Assembly (NCBI GenBank): GCA_964291405.2
Contig: OZ219926.1
Coordinates: forward strand, 3,680,001-3,744,000
DNA length: 64,000 nt
Origin: Thermodesulfobacteriota bacterium
Lineage (GTDB): Bacteria > Desulfobacterota > Binatia > Bin18
Reading direction: 5' to 3'
Shown here: positions 3,957 through 24,957 of the stretch, piece by piece
How positions within the stretch are numbered: the stretch's first letter is position 1
Layout of the letters: every line of letters begins with the position of its first letter
Program-made: the position numbers and the translations under genes
Notes under the pieces: model-generated
Database searches by the model: none
What the model was told of the DNA's origin: nothing
Seen by the model: the letters and a program-made list of their open reading frames with translations, nothing else

Positions 3957-4023
3957 TCATGTCCTCCTGAAAAATTTGCGACACCCTAACAGAAAAGCCC
4001 CGGTAAAAAAAGTTGGGCTGGCG

Positions 4024-4584
4024 TCAAGCCGGGAGCGGCTTCTCGACACGTGCGAGATACTCGGTCAGCGCGTCCGCCGTGCTGGGAAACGCCAGCTCCG
4101 ACCAGGGGATATCGGTCGGGGCAAAGAGCTGGACGGCCAGCGTCTCGTCCAGGGCCTGGGGCTCGCCGGCGAGCACGGTCGCCGGATACACCAGCACAAC
4201 GACCGGATAGCCGGGGTAGGAGTAAGCATTGAGCAGACGCCCCACCTCCACTGTGAGGCCGGTTTCTTCCAAGGTCTCGCGAATGGCCGCGTCTTCGACG
4301 CGCTCGCCGCGGTCCAGGAAGCCGCCGGGAAAGACCCATTTGCCATAGCCGGGCTCGATCCCGCGCTGCAACAGGAGAATTTTGCCCTGTATGACCGGAA
4401 TGGTACAGGCCGCGACTTTGGGATCGTCATAGAAAATAAACGAACAGCTTTCGCAGACCAGCCGTTTGGGTTCGTTGGGCTTGAGCGCCTGGCGGCTTAA
4501 CGCGCCGCCACACTTCGGGCAGAATCGAAAATGTGGACCGTGGTGATCGTGATGATGATGGTGCTGAGGGTGACTCTCGGCCAT
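4024..4584 (-). CDS. NUDIX hydrolase with N-terminal zinc ribbon and His-rich tail
   Basis: CPKCG..CESC; Nudix box GGFLDRGERVEDAAIRETLEETG; AGGAGG RBS before the ATG at 4584. Confidence 0.9.
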   Translation of the reverse strand: MAESHPQHHHHHDHHGPHFRFCPKCGGALSRQALKPNEPKRLVCESCSFIFYDDPKVAACTIPVIQGKILLLQRGIEPGYGKWVFPGGFLDRGERVEDAAIRETLEETGLTVEVGRLLNAYSYPGYPVVVLVYPATVLAGEPQALDETLAVQLFAPTDIPWSELAFPSTADALTEYLARVEKPLPA

Positions 4585-4801: not shown

Positions 4802-5428
4802 ATGACGACCTGGCAGACCTTTCTCTTTGCTATCAGCCTCGGACTCGGAGCCGGCATCACGCCCGGCCCGCTGTCCAGTCTGGTCATTCAGGAGAGCCTA
4901 CGTAGCGGCTGGAAGAGCGGGGCGTGTGTGGCCCTGGCTCCGCCGGTTGCGGACGTGCTGGTTGTCGGTCTCGTGCTCATGGTGCTGAGTCAACTCCCGC
5001 CCGCGAGCTTTTCGGTCCTCAGCCTCATCGGTGGGTGCTATGTGTGTTTCCTTGGGGGGGAGACTCTACGGACACTGGCACCTATGGGATCGGAGGCGGG
5101 AGGCGCGAGGAGCGTTTTTCTGAGTTTCCGTAAAGGGCTGCTGGTCAACCTGCTGAATCCCCATCCGTATATCTTTTGGCTGACGGTTGGAGGGCCGCTC
5201 GTCACGGACAATGCGCGTCACGATATGTGGTTGCCTATTATGGCTTTTCTGCTCGGTTTCTACGGCTGTCTGGTCGGATCGAAAGTCTTGATTGCCGTGC
5301 TTGTCCACGGCGGACGGGCGCGTCTACAAGGGCGTGGCTATCGGATAGCCCTCCGGTTGAGCGGAGTCTCCCTGCTCCTGTTTGGTCTGCTGTTGATCTG
5401 GGACGGCGTGTCCGCGCTGGTCAGCTGA
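4802..5428 (+). CDS. LysE/RhtB family exporter
   Basis: ITPGP and VNLLNPH motifs, multiple TM helices. Confidence 0.85.
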   Translation: MTTWQTFLFAISLGLGAGITPGPLSSLVIQESLRSGWKSGACVALAPPVADVLVVGLVLMVLSQLPPASFSVLSLIGGCYVCFLGGETLRTLAPMGSEAGGARSVFLSFRKGLLVNLLNPHPYIFWLTVGGPLVTDNARHDMWLPIMAFLLGFYGCLVGSKVLIAVLVHGGRARLQGRGYRIALRLSGVSLLLFGLLLIWDGVSALVS

Positions 5429-20061: not shown

Positions 20062-21108
20062 CTACGACACTCTGGGCAAGACCTCTTTTCCGAACCGATC
20101 CAGCGAGCCCATGATTTTGTCGTGGGCCAACCCGCCGAAATTTGCCAGCAGACTCACGTTGGTGATGCCCATGGCCTGGATTTCCTTGATGCGCTCGACG
20201 CACTGGTCCGGATCACCAAATATGACTTTATGCGGGTACAGATAGCCCTCATAGTCAAAAGTCTTGAAGGCGTCCTTGAGGCCCTGGTACGGCCGATACT
20301 GATCGGAGTAGGCGGCTTCCTGGTTGGAGGCGGCCACTGCGTTTATATAGCGCATCATGGCCTCGCGGGGCTCTTCCTTCGCCTTTTCCGCGGTCTCGCC
20401 GCAATAAAAATGGTACACCCCGAGGATTTCCGGAGCGTCCGCGTAGCCATGTGCCTGCCGGGTCTGGGTGAAGAGTTGGAGGCGGCCCACCAGGACTTCC
20501 GGATTGGGTTGGGCATAGGGGACGACCATTAAATGATAGCCCATCTTGCCGGCCCATTCGAACGATTCCGGCGTAAAAATACAGGCAACATAGACGGGTG
20601 GTGGTTTCTGAACGGGTTGCGGAATGACCTGGAGATTGCGAACCTTGCGGAATTTGCCGTCGTGAGAGACCCGTCTTTCCGCCCAGGCTTGCATGATGAT
20701 GGCGTGCGCTTCTTCAAACAGCGCCCGACTGTCACCCATATTGCGCTCAAAGGCGTCGTACTCGCCCTTTTGAAATCCCCGTCCAATCCCGAACTCCAAT
20801 CGCCCGCCCGATAAGCAGTCGAGCATGGCATACTCCTCTGCCAGCCGAATCGGGTCCTGGAGCGGCAGGAGGGCAATCCCGGAGCCAATGCGGATGTTCT
20901 TCGTACGTTGGGCAACCGCAGCCCCAATCACCGGAACGGAGGGCAGATGGCCGCCGTAATTATAAAAATGGTGTTCCGCAAACCAGACGGAGTGAAAGCC
21001 GAGAGCCTCAGCCTGGTCGGTCTCCGTGAGCATGTCCAGGTAGAATTGCTCATCGCTGGTATGAAATTCCGGGAAAAAGCTGGGTAAATGAAAGAGTGAG
21101 ATTCGCAT
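20062..21108 (-). CDS. Luciferase-like flavin monooxygenase (LLM)
   Basis: WFAEHH, P.RLAEE.A.LD.LSGGRLEFGIGRG; AGGAGG RBS before the ATG at 21108. Confidence 0.9.
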   Translation of the reverse strand: MRISLFHLPSFFPEFHTSDEQFYLDMLTETDQAEALGFHSVWFAEHHFYNYGGHLPSVPVIGAAVAQRTKNIRIGSGIALLPLQDPIRLAEEYAMLDCLSGGRLEFGIGRGFQKGEYDAFERNMGDSRALFEEAHAIIMQAWAERRVSHDGKFRKVRNLQVIPQPVQKPPPVYVACIFTPESFEWAGKMGYHLMVVPYAQPNPEVLVGRLQLFTQTRQAHGYADAPEILGVYHFYCGETAEKAKEEPREAMMRYINAVAASNQEAAYSDQYRPYQGLKDAFKTFDYEGYLYPHKVIFGDPDQCVERIKEIQAMGITNVSLLANFGGLAHDKIMGSLDRFGKEVLPRVS

Positions 21109-21781
21109 ACCGCCTCCTATGGTTCCTCTGTGCGACATGAAGTCGCTTAGAAAGATGGTTCAGATTATTTCTGTGTGAAAGAAAGGACACACAGACAGAG
21201 CCCTGTGAGTGTACACACAGGCATCATATCCCACATGCGTGCTGAGTAATTAGCAGGTGTGAAGCTGGGATAAAAGCCTAATGGGAAGGTAAATCATATA
21301 CCAACCCTGGGCCAGATGCAGACTGGTACGGTGAACGAAAGTGAACCCTTATTTGAAGCGTCGTGACGTAGGACTTCCGAAAGATGATTGATACGGAAGA
21401 ATGAGGCAAATGAACCCCTGCTGTTGATATAGGGGTGAGAGGTCGTAGTAGAGGATTATGGCCCGCGTACACCACAGCCTCCGGCGTAAAGAGGGCACCT
21501 ACCCCAGTCGTCTAACTTTCTATGCGGAACATGGTAAACCCGATGGGGTCTCAGACGAGCATGAGTAAGCCGACCGTAAGGAAGGCCGAATCCCTCAGCG
21601 GGAATGAGAGGTCTCAAGAAGCGAATGCCAGCAGCCGAAAGGTAACGGGAAAAGACCATCACACCCCAAGTGCACCACCCATTACTGCCACAATATGTGG
21701 AAAGCGGGAGGGCACATCATTGAATGGGGTGATCCGGGAAAAAAAAGGTTTTGAGTCCAAGAAAAGGGGTTCAAGGCAGGA

Positions 21782-21970
21782 CTATCCCAGGGACGATAAC
21801 ACAACCTGAATGACAACGGCACAAGAGACTGCAATCTCAGCACCAGTTGTCATCCAAGAAGCTACACGGGAATTCCGTGACTTGAAAAACTTAGCACCTT
21901 GTTTGCACACTGCCTCAGCAGCTTTGCAAAAACGATGGGCGCTTCGTAAAAACTTCTTGAACTTCTTCAT
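21782..21970 (-). CDS. Intron-borne antisense small protein A (62 aa; basic amphipathic N-terminus, hydrophobic C-terminus)
   Basis: GGAGA RBS then ATG; MKKFKKFLRSAHRFCK...AEIAVSCAVVIQVVLSSLG; lies within the DIIIa loop. Confidence 0.5.
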   Translation of the reverse strand: MKKFKKFLRSAHRFCKAAEAVCKQGAKFFKSRNSRVASWMTTGAEIAVSCAVVIQVVLSSLG

Positions 21971-22160
21971 AACATTCTCCATTTGGTTATGAGGTGAACA
22001 ACACAGGGCGTGAAGTCATCCGGGATAAGAAATCCCAAAGCCTCCTTTCTGTCTCCCTTGTCGCGATCAAGAGAAGACGGGATAAAGACCAAAACTTCCC
22101 AATGGCCTAATAACCGGCTGGATAAAGAGGGAAGGCATCCCCGCCGAAACGGGAAACAGT

Positions 22161-22346
22161 TTAACGTCGTGGACTAGATTCATAGGAACCTGGTAGCACG
22201 TAATTCATGGCATCCTCCGATGGAGGGTAGCTGCTCTGTAGATCATCATCCATAGATGAACTTCCCGGAGAGTCCTTCTCCGAAGCAGCGATAGCCAGAA
22301 GAACGACGGCACCAACACCAAGCCAAAACCAATCTTTGGCCCTCAT
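22161..22346 (-). CDS. Intron-borne antisense small protein B (61 aa; N-terminal TM, acidic Ser-rich tail)
   Basis: GGAGGT RBS then ATG; MRAKDWFWLGVGAVVLLAIAASEKDS...; lies within the DIIIb loop. Confidence 0.55.
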   Translation of the reverse strand: MRAKDWFWLGVGAVVLLAIAASEKDSPGSSSMDDDLQSSYPPSEDAMNYVLPGSYESSPRR

Positions 22347-22633
22347 ACGAATAACCTCCAATTCTCAGTTGTGTGAAAAGTATGAGAAACAAGGAAATTA
22401 AGGGGATAGAATACTGGAAGGACTGGTAGTGACAGTCCCAAAAACCTCCTTTCTCCTGGTAAGGCAAGGAAGAAGTGACCAAAGCACAGGAAAGATTGGC
22501 TGGCCCACCCAGCCATGACACCAAAAGAATCAAAACCATGACGGAAAAACAACCTTCCAATCTCTCAGGGTGAAAACCCGCTGACGTGAGACTGGTAGTC
22601 TGTCCAAAAATCTTTGAAGAAAGGACGCACATC

Positions 22634-24310
22634 ATGGCTGACGTGATGATCCAGGCAACTGGAAACGAGGTCGTGACGCGACAATGGCAAGACATCGATT
22701 GGTGTCACAACGCCAAAATCGTGCGCGACCTTCGACACCGTATTTTTCGGGCTTCGCGGCTAGGGGACCGGAGGAAACTTCGGAACCTGCAACGCCTCAT
22801 GCTGAAATGCCGAGCCAATCATGAGATGAGTATCAGACAGGTTACGCAAGTAAGCACAGGGCGCAATACGCCAGGTATTGACAAGGTGATAGTCAAAACG
22901 CCGGCAGCGCGAACCGAGCTAATGGAAGCAATCGCAACCTACAAGCCGGAAAGAGCGCAGCCGGTCAAACGGGTCTTTATTCCCAAACGCAACGGTAAAC
23001 AGCGACCCCTCGGTATCCCGACCATCATGGATAGGGTGATGCAGGCAATTGTCAAGAACGCCTTAGAACCCGAATGGGAAGCCAGGTTTGAATCAAGCGT
23101 CTACGGCTTTCGCCCAGGGCGCAGTTGCCATGATGCCATTCAACGCATCTATGCAAATGTCAAACCGAACTTGAAGAAACATTGGGTCGTTGACGCCGAT
23201 ATCGTTGGAGCCTTCGACAACATCCCCCACGAAACCGTGCTGAACGCAATCCAGGGATTCCCAGGAAAAGCACTCATTCACGCATGGTTACAATCCGGCA
23301 TCCTGGAAGGCACAACACAGAAGCCAACACTCCTGGGAACTCCCCAAGGCGGTGTAATCTCGCCATTACTGCTCAACATTGTCCTGCATGGACTCGAACA
23401 GGCTCTTGATATCCGATACCAGAAAAGTGGAAACCGATACCGGAACATCAGCAACCGAACCCTGGTTAGATATGCAGACGATTTTGTCATCCTCACGGAG
23501 ACAAAAGAAGACGCCGACGCAGCGCAAAAACGAGCAGCAGAATGGCTACAAGAGCGCGGGCTGGAACTCTCACCAGAGAAGACCAGTATCCGACACCTGA
23601 CAGAAGGATTCGACTTTCTCGGATTCCATGTCAGACACTATCCTGACACAAACGTGAAAACAGGATGGAAGCTCTTAATAAAACCCAGCAAGGAAACGGT
23701 CAAAGCTTTCCGATACCGACTCAAACAAGAATGGACGGCTTTAGTCGGACATAACGCAGAGTCAGTCGTAAGAAGGCTGAACCCAATTCTGAGAGGATGG
23801 GGGTATTACTTCCATACGCAAGTATCAAAGGCCATCTTTCAGGACATCGACAACTGGATGTTTCAGAGGGTGTACCGATGGTGTAAGCGGACCCATCCAC
23901 AGAAAAGCTGGGAGTGGATCAAAAACACCTACTTCGGAAAGGCAAAAACCAACAGTCAGGCAAAATGGTACTTCGGAGGAACAGAAGGGCGTCTGCTGAA
24001 ACTCTCAGAGATTCCCATCCAACGACATATCCTAGTCTGGCATACCGCATCACCGGATGATCCACGGCTTGCAACATATTGGGAAGAACGTCGAAAGAAG
24101 GCTTGGAAGAACCTCCCTTCACCACGTCAACGGGATTTGGCCAGAAGGCAAAAGGGGCTCTGCTCGCACTGTCGAGTGAGTCTGTATACTGGTGAGGAAT
24201 TACACACCCACCACCATATCCCAAGGAAAAAGGGCGGAACTGACAAGCGCGAAAATCTGAGACTCGTACACCTCTATTGTCACCAGCAGATACATGGTAA
24301 ACGATGTTGA
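22634..24310 (+). CDS. ltrA: Group II intron reverse transcriptase/maturase with HNH endonuclease
   Basis: RT0 NTPGID, RPLGIPT..DR, YGFRPGRSCHDA, GTPQGGVISPLL, YADD, maturase X domain, CSHC...HH..P...GG...NL..VH..CHQQIH; AGAAAGGA RBS before the ATG at 22634. Confidence 0.97.
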   Translation: MADVMIQATGNEVVTRQWQDIDWCHNAKIVRDLRHRIFRASRLGDRRKLRNLQRLMLKCRANHEMSIRQVTQVSTGRNTPGIDKVIVKTPAARTELMEAIATYKPERAQPVKRVFIPKRNGKQRPLGIPTIMDRVMQAIVKNALEPEWEARFESSVYGFRPGRSCHDAIQRIYANVKPNLKKHWVVDADIVGAFDNIPHETVLNAIQGFPGKALIHAWLQSGILEGTTQKPTLLGTPQGGVISPLLLNIVLHGLEQALDIRYQKSGNRYRNISNRTLVRYADDFVILTETKEDADAAQKRAAEWLQERGLELSPEKTSIRHLTEGFDFLGFHVRHYPDTNVKTGWKLLIKPSKETVKAFRYRLKQEWTALVGHNAESVVRRLNPILRGWGYYFHTQVSKAIFQDIDNWMFQRVYRWCKRTHPQKSWEWIKNTYFGKAKTNSQAKWYFGGTEGRLLKLSEIPIQRHILVWHTASPDDPRLATYWEERRKKAWKNLPSPRQRDLARRQKGLCSHCRVSLYTGEELHTHHHIPRKKGGTDKRENLRLVHLYCHQQIHGKRC

Positions 24311-24402
24311 GAAAGGTGTTGAAAAGGGGCGCAAAAGGATAATCCAAAGAAAAGAATACAGGGTCCGGTGTGAGCCTTGGCCCACACCGGAGGTCCTGCA
24401 TC

Positions 24403-24480
24403 CTAGCTTGCCAGCTCTAGGATAATCCACACGGCTACCAAGAAACGGTAGTCAATACGGAGATGCATGGTAAAATCCAT
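24403..24480 (-). CDS. Intron-borne antisense micro-ORF C (25 aa, hydrophobic)
   Basis: AGGTG RBS then MDFTMHLRIDYRFLVAVWIILELAS*, followed by hairpin 24364-24391 and a T-rich tract on the minus strand. Confidence 0.35.
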   Translation of the reverse strand: MDFTMHLRIDYRFLVAVWIILELAS

Positions 24481-24957
24481 ACAAACACCTATTTTTGTGG
24501 CTCAAAGGCCGAAGCTGAGTCAGCCGTAAAGGTAGGACGGTAGGATTGAAAATCCCTACCAACTGTGTAGGATTTACCAGCACACCGTCAGCGCTGATAA
24601 GCCACCAACTGTTTGCAGCAGTTGGTGGCGGCTTCAAAGCCCGTCCCTTGCGGACGGGCTTCCCTTATTTTCCAGCACAAACAACACAAGCCGTAAAGTA
24701 CGACAGACTGCTTGAGCCGTGTGCGGTGAAAGTCGCACGCACGGTTCTTAGGGGGGAAGGGCCTTGTGAGGGGCCTGACCTACCCGATTCATAGCCGACT
24801 TTCCCCCTGGAAAGAAGGCGGGAGAGGCGGAGTCTGCCTCTGGGGGTACGTTGAACTGGATGCGTGGGTTTGCTAGTTGGAGAGCTTATTTACTATTATA
24901 GAGAAAGCGCAGATAGACGGTCTGCATAAGAGTTGGTCGGTGTTATAGCAGGAGAGG

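Follow-up and report, generated by a model that had tools for sequence, protein, structure and literature searches.

A group II intron with an expanded domain III that probably carries opposite-strand genes for small membrane proteins in two of its arm loops

The window (the whole 64,000-nt stretch of DNA analysed, from an uncultured soil bacterium) contains an intact and apparently recently mobile group II intron, and two arm loops of its domain III (DIII) have probably taken up self-contained gene modules that read from the opposite strand. Bacterial group II introns are minimal retroelements, made up of one ribozyme and one protein gene. Each module has an ATG behind a strong ribosome-binding site and would encode a small membrane protein of the single-pass type. 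On the plus strand it would fold back into a long outgrowth of a peripheral stem that leaves the catalytic scaffold intact. Lying in loops and in antisense, the modules would therefore be copied passively through the RNA intermediate of the intron, and they could be expressed only from integrated DNA, off the other strand. Sister introns have different small membrane-protein genes in the same loop and, in some cases, a sense ORF in domain II; the intron would thus be a carrier of exchangeable passengers. The features are as follows.

21130-24788, plus strand: complete group II intron, 3659 nt, starting with GTGCG and ending in ...CCCGAT
21611-22592, plus strand: DIII, 982 nt between the closing stem strands GTCTCA and TGAGAC
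21652-22108, plus strand: insert a in the terminal loop of arm a of DIII, ~457 nt, delimited by alignment to relatives
21782-21970, minus strand: ORF a, 62 aa plus stop, ATG start, with GGAGA at 21980-21976, 5 nt upstream
22041-22050, minus strand: AGAAAGGAGG, 10 nt fully complementary to the 3' tail of 16S rRNA; ORF a starts 71 nt downstream
22109-22135, plus strand: conserved scaffold between the inserts, consisting of AATAACCG, the arm a 3' strand (GCTGG), ATAAAGAG and the arm b 5' strand (GGAAGG)
22136-22552, plus strand: insert b in the terminal loop of arm b of DIII, ~417 nt
22161-22346, minus strand: ORF b, 61 aa plus stop, ATG start, with GGAGG at 22359-22355, 8 nt upstream
22445-22454, minus strand: the other perfect copy of AGAAAGGAGG; ORF b starts 99 nt downstream
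22568-22579, plus strand: DIII arm c, GGGT-GAAA-ACCC, from sequence and fold; the GAAA hairpin is kept in relatives
22634-24310, plus strand: intron-encoded protein, 558 aa, frame intact, with RVT_N, RVT_1, GIIM (maturase) and HNH domains
24311-24711, plus strand: extra ~400 nt separating the intron protein stop codon from domain V, a domain IV extension
24712-24788, plus strand: domains V and VI, Rfam RF00029

The intron and its expanded domain III

The ends of the intron are fixed by the domain V/VI match (RF00029, 24712-24788, 68.6 bits, E 2.1e-11; Rfam gathering score 40) and by contigs that join 21128/9 straight to 24788/9. The 3' end at 24788 agrees with this empty-site joint, and the 5' end was matched by alignment to those of relatives. 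Domain I was recognised by RF02012 (21201-21288, 39.8 bits; Rfam gathering score 34). The encoded protein matches RVT_N (E 9e-24), RVT_1 (E 4e-47), GIIM (E 4e-18) and HNH (E 2e-8), and is 60-65% identical to the proteins of cargo-bearing relatives. The element, present as a single copy in its own genome, has the attributes looked for in a mobile group II intron, namely domain V/VI, a 5' GUGYG with domain I, a reverse transcriptase/maturase/endonuclease in domain IV and evidence of mobility. The interval between the protein stop and domain V is ~20-60 nt in relatives and ~420 nt in G018. In the window this domain IV extension contains promoter-like and terminator-like sites on the plus strand; it was considered as a further cargo slot and rejected, the small-ORF scan having given no convincing SD-preceded ORF. 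The divergent LLM gene next to the intron probably starts at 21108, 21 nt from the intron 5' end.

All stems and ORFs lie at the bases named in the initial annotation, as judged from the sequence and the ORF coordinates. The closing stem of DIII is formed by GTCTCA (21611-21616) and TGAGAC (22587-22592). Arm a is built from CCAGC (21628-21632) paired with GCTGG (22117-22121) and GGGAA (21647-21651) paired with TTCCC (22096-22100), and arm b from GGAAGG (22130-22135) paired with CCTTCC (22553-22558). Unconstrained RNAfold of 21605-22598 recovers the closing stem as well as all three arms, a to c, with a minimum free energy of -310.5 kcal/mol (z = -6.58 vs 20 shuffles). Covariation is seen in the closing stem, with 5 of 5 pairs formed in 11 of 12 related introns by 10 different sequences, and in the arm a stem, which pairs equally completely in 11 of 12 by 6 different sequences.

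The claim of a giant DIII likewise held when the span was compared across introns. Measured between a pair of motifs, it is 963 nt here vs 77-106 nt in 10 canonical relatives (20 loci were scanned, of which 14 fitted the motif pair, 4 of these being expanded relatives, and 6 did not fit). Insert a occupies a position that in canonical relatives holds ~2-3 nt (GGGAA-CA-CATAACC), and in run X1 the contigs of other introns agree with the window through 21651 and then read CACATAACC. The scaffold at 22109-22135 aligns to CATAACCTGCCGGATAAGG and like sequences in relatives, in which a hairpin of 11 to ~35 nt forms arm b. Insert b is more structured on its plus strand (z = -5.3 vs -1.9 for the minus strand).

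The extra sequence thus lies in DIII, as first proposed, and not in domain IV or in a nested insertion sequence or intron. A nested transposable element or twintron was rejected, since DIII contains no transposase, second intron protein, terminal inverted repeats or second domain V. Compared with its own genome, DIII gave no other match, and the repeats found were short and imperfect only. A LAGLIDADG-type intron with an ORF in DIII was also dismissed: no Pfam family was found in any DIII frame, the ORFs are antisense and the reverse transcriptase is present. Nor are inserts a and b duplicates of each other, their common sequence being one 17-nt motif only.

Reading frames on the minus strand of the inserts

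Each insert contains one minus-strand ORF with its own SD, in agreement with the initial annotation, and both products are small hydrophobic membrane peptides as had been suggested (62 and 61 aa). The ORF a protein has a Lys-rich N-terminal half and a hydrophobic C-terminal tail (best 17-residue hydropathy, KD17, 2.2). The ORF b protein (KD17 2.06) consists of an N-terminal transmembrane helix, an acidic linker and a C-terminal motif, DDLxSSYPPxEDAMNYxLPGSY. Upstream of both ORFs lies the perfect 10-nt AGAAAGGAGG, matching the 16S tail, which reads ...CACCTCCTTTCT. This sequence occurs 11 times on both strands of the 4.95-Mb genome, and 2 of these 11 occurrences fall within inserts a and b. 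In each case a short frame comes after the 10-nt sequence, and its TGA overlaps the ATG of the main ORF.

ORF b has homologues in G213 (E 7e-13) and G026 (E 6e-7), and its family is rare, with 6 small proteins in a set of 1.84 billion representatives, and has members both within introns and outside them. A homologous copy was expected to be free of stops and frameshifts, and ORF b is indeed intact in a second, related intron, in the same arm as judged from the 5' scaffold (G213 is cut by the contig end and partly masked, and the 3' side of its arm b lies beyond the seen sequence). Comparison of the window copy with that of the second intron gives a dN of 0.405 with a dS of 1.28, and for the 28 C-terminal codons alone a dN of 0.195 with a dS of 2.03; in the two alternative frames pS is 0.17 and 0.34 vs pN of 0.33 and 0.30. 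Judged by this pattern of substitution, ORF b is a real gene under frame-specific purifying selection. The prediction of dN/dS<1 was thereby upheld for ORF b, in its own frame only, and did not extend to ORF a, which is without relatives.

No relatives of ORF a were found in 5.8 billion clusters, in 55 family genomes or in the ESM Atlas (no usable match), and its relation to the glycine-zipper proteins of other introns (see below) as a diverged member was rejected (hhalign probability 0.15%). It was called by a gene caller on other assemblies (P0002/P0016). From its sequence, ORF a is best described as an orphan with the same layout as ORF b, and we infer that it is expressed.

A quite different reading is that the inserts are ballast, either a decayed nested element or a runaway loop expansion, with the minus-strand ORFs as by-products of a purine-rich sense strand. 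At 32-34% T, the composition of the minus strand is enough to favour frames that are open and hydrophobic. In dinucleotide shuffles of the minus strands of five inserts from this and related introns, an SD-preceded ORF of >=40 aa with a hydrophobic 17-mer appeared in 33, 40, 20, 17 and 5 of 300, so that 2-13% of single-insert shuffles yield a similar ORF. Other points in the same direction are the orphan status of ORF a, the presence of just one 17-nt motif in common between the inserts, and an imperfect direct repeat on either side of insert a (21651-21669 and 22084-22102, 15 of 19 positions), as a target duplication would leave. Against this, such an ORF, with ATG and SD, is present on the minus strand in all five inserts and on the plus strand in none; multiplying the shuffle fractions gives ~1e-6 on the assumption of independent inserts, which does not strictly hold for related introns. 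The concentration of 2 of the 11 perfect SD sequences of the genome in these inserts, the missing transposase, second intron protein, terminal inverted repeats and further genomic copy, the frame-specific substitution pattern, and the membership of ORF b and the glycine-zipper cargo in conserved protein families inside and outside introns all speak against ballast as well. For ORF b the reading is ruled out by its homologues, its six-member family and its frame-specific selection; ORF a is not covered by this argument. As an account of the inserts we regard it as highly improbable.

Codon usage was scored against the host (ORF a -0.12, ORF b -0.16, intron protein gene -0.001; non-coding null mean -0.21, real genes mean +0.25), and this test carries no information, the gene for the intron protein itself having a score like that of non-coding DNA.

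Related introns, their cargo and mobility

Three same-genus introns have inserts of 179-426 nt at the identical arm a loop, each with a different minus-strand ORF preceded by SD, starting with ATG and encoding one hydrophobic helix. The intron proteins form a five-member clade with support of 100/99. The antisense cargo pattern recurs in G213 and in a truncated intron, G076, both from another genus of the same family, while the window contributes a single such element, and the cargo products are all 43-101 aa long with one hydrophobic helix. Some relatives also hold a sense ORF in domain II; a Foldseek search with the model of this protein gave no match at E 0.001 or better. The scaffold is kept while the inserts vary among homologous introns, which fits the initial proposal of a retroelement with antisense passengers in insertion-tolerant ribozyme loops.

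One of these cargoes, in G018, belongs to a glycine-zipper family known inside and outside introns. Compared with the stand-alone gene of G019, it shows pN of 0.20-0.22 and pS of 0.88-0.91, and on these values the glycine-zipper cargo is a real coding gene under purifying selection. At 2 of 2 non-intron loci examined (G019 and G311) the stand-alone gene lies directly downstream of a Cas_NE0113 gene, and the G019 locus also has Cas6 and Cas10. No relatives of ORF b or of the glycine-zipper protein were found in viral contigs. An Rfam search of 15 loci with homologues of the domain II ORF or the glycine-zipper gene, spanning 1.5 kb either side, gave no intron match; domain V would fall outside these loci, and motif scans and blastn were therefore used instead. 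The 5' UTRs of three intron-borne glycine-zipper cassettes are ~50% identical, with one hairpin motif common to G018 and G076 only. A hairpin with a T-rich or partly T-rich tail follows 4 of the 8 cassettes examined across these introns.

Mobility is indicated by two intron copies in G010, each of 3003 nt, which have 0 mismatches between them and different sites and flanks. For the window intron, depth in run X1 is 44.6 at empty-site joints vs 28.9 for the intron itself; X1 may be the genome's own source sample, the one behind the assembly, so it is not independent support. In X2 the empty-site joints have depths of 5.6 plus 2.4 vs 2.6 for the intron. Going by identical copies and empty sites, loaded introns are evidently still mobile, and the window intron has evidently been mobile recently.

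Known systems and possible roles of the cargo

The closest framework is that of mobile introns encoding a reverse transcriptase-maturase-endonuclease (IIB-like; RF00029, RF02012), with which the window intron shares the GTGCG start, six domains, domain V/VI, the protein in domain IV, identical copies and empty sites. Canonical members, including the 10 relatives examined, have a single gene and a DIII of 77-106 nt, whereas the present intron combines its 963-nt DIII with two opposite-strand genes and ~400 nt more in domain IV. Phage 'morons' and the engineered targetron cargo in domain IVb of Ll.LtrB are independent gene units in insertion-tolerant spots. They resemble the present case in that gene units hitch-hike in a mobile element and related elements have different cargo in the same slot, but here the slot is DIII (and domain II), the cargo is antisense and one domain offers two slots.

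Two other kinds of intron come near in part. Fungal introns of the rns-952 and rnl-489 families have a LAGLIDADG ORF in DIII (also in domains IB and IV) with the core conserved, and PMC13190283 infers repeated modular ORF acquisition in LAGLIDADG group II introns. These introns are alike in that DIII holds a foreign ORF with the catalytic core conserved, and differ in that they are organellar rRNA introns whose ORF is a sense-strand homing endonuclease and whose reverse transcriptase has been replaced; the window intron is bacterial, with antisense ORFs for small membrane proteins and an intact reverse transcriptase. In group IIC-attC introns (S.ma.I2 and relatives), bottom-strand promoters directed toward the 5' end are reported, one of them predicted in DIII (PMC3001079). 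The bottom strand of the ribozyme there carries expression signals reading to the 5' end, as it may here; those promoters lie in normal-sized class C domains at integron attC sites and drive host cassettes, whereas the window lineage has modules of 180-457 nt with their own genes in DIII loops of an endonuclease-bearing intron. Nothing similar was found among natural cases in the literature searched.

On the interpretation as acquired gene modules, as many as three passengers would ride in the ribozyme loops of a natural and still-mobile lineage; two of its cargo families at the least are real genes under selection, also known outside introns. Group II introns would then join the vehicles for horizontal movement of small genes. 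The loops that have taken 180-457 nt of foreign sequence are those of domain II, DIII arms a and b and the 3' part of domain IV, and this map of tolerant loops should be directly useful for targetron cargo design. The lineage would also offer a simple system in which to test regulation by a ribozyme RNA of genes on the strand opposite to it, and the cargo family linked to type III CRISPR accessory genes suggests a spreading route for defence-related membrane effectors.

What the cargo does is a separate matter. The products presumably act on the membrane, and the intron RNA, perfectly complementary to the cargo mRNA because of the antisense geometry, may damp their expression. Taken further, the cargo could be a type I toxin-antitoxin or abortive infection system in which toxic peptides are silenced by abundant antisense intron RNA; loss of the intron or of its transcription would release the toxin, and the element would be stabilised or infected cells killed. 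Hok/mok/sok is organised in this manner, with a gene for a small hydrophobic peptide, a fully complementary opposite-strand RNA and, upstream, a short frame that runs into the start of the main ORF. All three elements would have counterparts in the window, and we take the short frames upstream of ORF a and ORF b, each behind a perfect SD and with its TGA on the main ATG, to recall the mok/hok coupling. The antisense RNA of hok/mok/sok is a short sRNA, while the candidate antitoxin here is a 3.7 kb ribozyme. The small size of the cargo products with their one hydrophobic helix, the position of stand-alone glycine-zipper genes directly after Cas_NE0113 at both loci, and the G076 intron fragment, in which the glycine-zipper ORF is intact and the domain II ORF broken, all favour such a role. 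It is harder to reconcile with the cargo proteins having no significant match in PADLOC, PHROGs, Pfam or NCBIfam, with the conserved soluble acidic C-terminal motif of ORF b, unlike a minimal pore peptide, and with the domain II sense ORF of relatives, by which cargo is not confined to antisense peptides. The idea is one of resemblance only, in single-pass peptides, complementarity and the type III CRISPR neighbours of one cargo's relatives, and we hold it to be possible, if doubtful.

A broader version, which we think rather unlikely, would make the intron a platform for swappable, backward-reading membrane-toxin cassettes with the ribozyme RNA as antitoxin, and hence a system of addiction or abortive infection borne by an intron. 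Cargo would have moved among the domain II, arm a and arm b loops in an integron-like fashion, and some cassettes would be related to small membrane proteins associated with type III CRISPR.

The inserts might instead be outward-reading modules, whose bottom-strand signals keep the host gene beyond the intron 5' end expressed and whose small ORFs are leader frames. The intron 5' end is situated upstream of the divergent LLM gene, 21 nt from its likely start (21108), and at 3 of 5 insertion sites of the lineage a divergent gene starts ~21 to 160 nt past the 5' end; the remaining 2 (G010a and G010b) are without such a downstream gene. Group IIC-attC introns provide a precedent, with outward promoters reported in domains I and II and, in one instance, III (PMC3001079). 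Across 21000-24950, however, none of the 3 sigma-70-like promoter sites at threshold is on the minus strand, and a looser rule gave weak candidates only (8 of 12 matches), the host consensus being possibly different in both scans. This result counts against minus-strand transcription of the cargo as well. In G018 and G023 a strong hairpin and T-rich tail come straight after the cassette stop, which would block read-through. We consider this reading decidedly unlikely, also in view of the purifying selection on the ORF b and glycine-zipper proteins, which a leader frame would not require.

Architecture of the intron and its domain III

The window contains one group II intron, the features of which are listed below. 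GTGCG marks its 5′ start, and the alignment to relatives runs from the first base. In contigs of two public sequencing runs, X1 (possibly the source sample of the genome) and X2, position 21128/9 is joined straight to 24788/9. Depth at this joint is 44.6 in X1, where the intron has 28.9; in X2 the joints have 5.6 and 2.4 and the intron 2.6. The window is identical to the intron contigs of both runs. This fixes the intron ends exactly and shows that occupied and empty alleles coexist. In the host genome the intron and its protein are single-copy.

Features of the intron in the window
21130-24788, plus strand: complete group II intron, the only one in the window
21201-21288, plus strand: domain I sub-model (Rfam)
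~21652-22108: insert a, in the loop of domain III arm a
21782-21970, minus strand: ORF a, 62 aa
22041-22050, minus strand: motif AGAAAGGAGG in insert a
~22136-22552: insert b, in the loop of arm b
22161-22346, minus strand: ORF b, 61 aa
22445-22454, minus strand: motif AGAAAGGAGG in insert b
22634-24310, plus strand: intron protein, 558 aa, with RVT_N, RVT_1, maturase and HNH domains
24712-24788, plus strand: domains V and VI (Rfam, 68.6 bits)

A sequence check placed the stems of domain III (DIII) and both antisense ORFs exactly where the initial annotation had them, and an unconstrained fold of 21605-22598 (z = -6.58) returned all three arms, a to c, as well as the closing stem. Among 12 related introns, 11 have full pairing in the closing stem (5 bp) and 11 in the arm-a stem, with 10 and 6 different sequences, respectively; this variation is genuine covariation. 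A scan of 20 loci for DIII-bordering motifs matched 14, in ten of which DIII spans 77-106 nt, the other four being expanded (256, 256, 467 and 503 nt); the span in the window is 963 nt. Of the six loci that did not match the motif pair (L028-L031, L033 and L056), the first five have the canonical spacing of 140-155 nt from the DIII match to the protein gene. The extra DIII sequence of the window consists of two blocks with the conserved scaffold AATAACCGGCTGGATAAAGAGGGAAGG between them; folded as plus strand, insert a has a z-score of -3.0 and insert b one of -5.3.

ORFs in DIII are known only as sense-strand LAGLIDADG genes of two fungal mitochondrial intron families (PMC13190283), whereas those of the window are antisense and would encode small proteins. 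A full-text search of the literature outside subscription journals returned no natural bacterial group II intron with antisense small-protein genes in DIII.

Besides DIII, the window intron has about 400 nt of extra sequence between the intron-protein stop and domain V (24311-24711), in which no convincing ORF was found. Upstream of domain V, its plus strand carries promoter-like sites (24449-24476 and 24546-24573) as well as a hairpin that resembles a terminator and has a T-run (24637-24671). A similar extension (~420 nt) in the intron of G018, a genome of the same genus, has no sequence similarity to it.

Cargo of related introns

Close relatives of the intron protein (60-65% identity) occur in three other genomes among 28 of the same genus, namely G018, G023 and G010 (two copies), and a further one, in three copies, in G223 from another genus of the family. 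Together with the window protein they form one clade (support 100/99), in which G018 is the sister of the window (96/95). The G223 intron, 2328 nt long, has a canonical DIII of 77 nt. In G018, G023 and G010, DIII carries an insert at the exact arm-a loop site, between GGGAA(A) and (C)ATAACC, of 426, 389 and 179 nt, respectively; no nucleotide similarity to the arm-a insert of the window was found. With stems that covary and inserts that differ, the expectation of a retained scaffold with variable inserts was borne out. Each of the three inserts has a single minus-strand ATG ORF with a GGAGG-type Shine-Dalgarno (SD) site upstream and one hydrophobic helix. The two G010 introns, 3003 nt each, are identical and occupy unrelated sites; hence cargo-loaded introns move.

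Cargo genes in relatives
G018, arm a, minus-strand ORF: 81 aa, glycine-zipper protein
G023, arm a, minus-strand ORF: 94 aa
G010, arm a, minus-strand ORF: 43 aa
G018, L062 6727-7146, minus strand: domain II sense ORF
G010, L064 6354-6782, minus strand: domain II sense ORF
G213, L072 297-713, plus strand: domain II sense ORF
G019, L061 3078-7856: stand-alone glycine-zipper locus
G311, L099 2253-3829: stand-alone glycine-zipper locus

Additionally, the G018 and G010 introns have a domain II insert of ~490 nt with a sense-strand ORF of ~140 aa (45% identity between the two, E 8e-42). A search of 55 genomes of the bacterial family gave 17 matches to this protein family, spread over 10 genomes and mostly stand-alone genes; a Pfam search gave no match. 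The AlphaFold model (pLDDT 92.8) has a helix / 7-strand sheet / helix build, and its best structural matches, frataxin-like Nqo15, CyaY and frataxin, are borderline (Z 9.0-7.6).

The glycine-zipper family is present in five of 55 family genomes. Three copies are intron-borne and antisense in the arm-a loop (G018, G213 and G076). The G076 copy lies in a 3′-truncated intron fragment of the lineage (L097, reverse strand, 376 to ~1790), where the antisense ORF is intact, with an SD site and a downstream hairpin, and the domain II ORF is broken, leaving a 68-aa open frame. The two stand-alone copies (72-73 aa), in G019 and G311, both have a Cas_NE0113 gene directly upstream in the non-intron loci examined; in G019 the gene is located between Cas_NE0113 and Cas6 plus Cas10. 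Comparison of G018 with G019 gave pN 0.20-0.22 and pS 0.88-0.91. The glycine-zipper cargo is a real gene, and type III CRISPR systems may have in its product an accessory membrane protein not described before.

Coding status of ORF b and ORF a

A six-frame search of the 55 family genomes identified homologues of ORF b in G213 (intact, 58 aa, 53% identity, E 7e-13) and G026 (E 6e-7). A three-sequence profile, run with full HMMER against 1.84 billion representatives at E <= 0.001, matched eight proteins, six of them small and sharing one architecture, in which an acidic linker connects an N-terminal helix to the C-terminal motif SSYPPxEDAMN(H/Y)xxPGSY. The remaining two, long proteins matched over six short stretches, were discounted. 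The dN/dS<1 predicted for the antisense ORFs was obtained for ORF b (window against G213: dN 0.405, dS 1.28; last 28 codons: dN 0.195, dS 2.03); in the other two frames of the ORF b block, pS/pN was 0.17/0.33 and 0.34/0.30. This conservation pattern marks ORF b as a real gene.

The G213 copy of ORF b is located inside another intron of the lineage, in the order sense domain II ORF, DIII 5′ scaffold, arm-a insert with a minus-strand glycine-zipper ORF, CATAACCGGTCGGATA scaffold and ORF b homologue (minus strand). This is the two-arm layout of the window, in a partly masked locus on a contig that ends before arm b closes. The G026 copy is outside any intron. It comes after the gene of a glycine-rich membrane protein (142 aa), the stop of which overlaps its start codon, and adjoins ankyrin genes and an integrase fragment. 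In G213 (L072), a ~45-nt sequence beginning TAGAGCATTTTCAC is present twice, directly 3′ of the domain II ORF (715-760) and at the expected arm-b closing point near the contig end (1723-1765). A small repeat element may account for this, as may an artefact of assembly; the locus is partly N-masked.

ORF a starts with ATG, 5 nt downstream of GGAGA, encodes a hydrophobic tail and occupies the position of the glycine-zipper gene in G213; none of the searches made found relatives. We scored each insert for an SD site, a minimum ORF length of 40 aa and a hydrophobic 17-mer, and this feature is present on the minus strand in five of five inserts and on the plus strand in none. Of 300 dinucleotide-shuffled versions of each minus strand, 33, 40, 20, 17 and 5 had it. 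The T-rich minus strand accounts for part of the ORF pattern, but not for all five inserts jointly. The cargo interpretation of the initial annotation stands firmly for ORF b, with its homologues and purifying pattern, and moderately for the orphan ORF a.

Expression signals and possible roles

The host 16S rRNA ends in ...CACCTCCTTTCT, and its perfect 10-nt complement, AGAAAGGAGG, has only 11 copies genome-wide, including the two in the inserts. Both of these are followed 2-3 nt on by TTGGGA and a short frame, which ends in a TGA overlapping the main-ORF ATG; the spacing to TTG is too short for ordinary initiation, so translation of the short frames is not claimed. The plus strand of these sites reads CCUCCUUUCU, a mimic of the 16S 3′ tail, and at one of them complements the ribosome site of the intron-protein gene (22618-22628) at 10 of 11 positions, a pairing that could provide cis control of its translation. 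The motif may serve either strand.

A hairpin with a T-rich or partly T-rich tail follows the cargo ORF strongly in G018 and G023 and moderately in window b and G213 b, none was found at window a and G010, and the glycine-zipper cassettes of G213 and G076 have downstream hairpins without a clear T-run. Cassettes with clearer hairpins would fit separate transcription units; no sigma-70-like promoter on the minus strand of 21000-24950 reached the prediction threshold.

Each insert would fold on itself in the intron RNA, lengthening its arm and leaving the core undisturbed. As loaded introns move, the cargo would travel as antisense RNA and be expressed from DNA only. The peptides are probably membrane-active, to go by their form and CRISPR-adjacent relatives, and the intron RNA would be their built-in antisense partner. 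That they form a type I toxin-antitoxin or defence system we regard as rather unlikely; within the same literature scope, no type I toxin link to group II introns was found.

Alternatively, and not exclusively, the bottom-strand cassettes could be expression modules restoring a divergent host gene beyond the intron 5′ end. At three of five insertion sites this end is ~21 to 160 nt upstream of such a gene; in the window the intron, at 21130, is 21 nt upstream of a divergent LLM oxidoreductase gene with a likely start at 21108. Group IIC-attC introns, which have promoters on their bottom strand, provide a demonstrated precedent for this reading (PMC3001079). Terminators and selection on the cargo protein sequences oppose it as the main role, and we retain the passenger genes as the primary reading.

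The window intron is inserted backwards to the LLM oxidoreductase gene and separates it from its upstream region. The G018 (L062) intron is similarly placed ~160 nt, and the G023 (L063) intron ~31 nt, upstream of a divergent gene; by eye from sequence, we take these genes to be Mo-hydroxylase-like and MogA-like, respectively.

In several distant relatives, metagenome loci L034, L035, L037, L039, L042 and L043, the intron-protein match extends over 1.9-2.5 kb rather than 1.6 kb; for L034 and L035, its blastn pieces are separated by ~2.7 kb more than in the window. This suggests that the protein gene is interrupted by another element, perhaps a nested intron. L005, a Tatlockia MAG contig, has two domain V/VI matches on the same strand, 900 nt apart (3964-4040 and 4883-4962), along with a second RT match, and would represent either tandem or nested introns.
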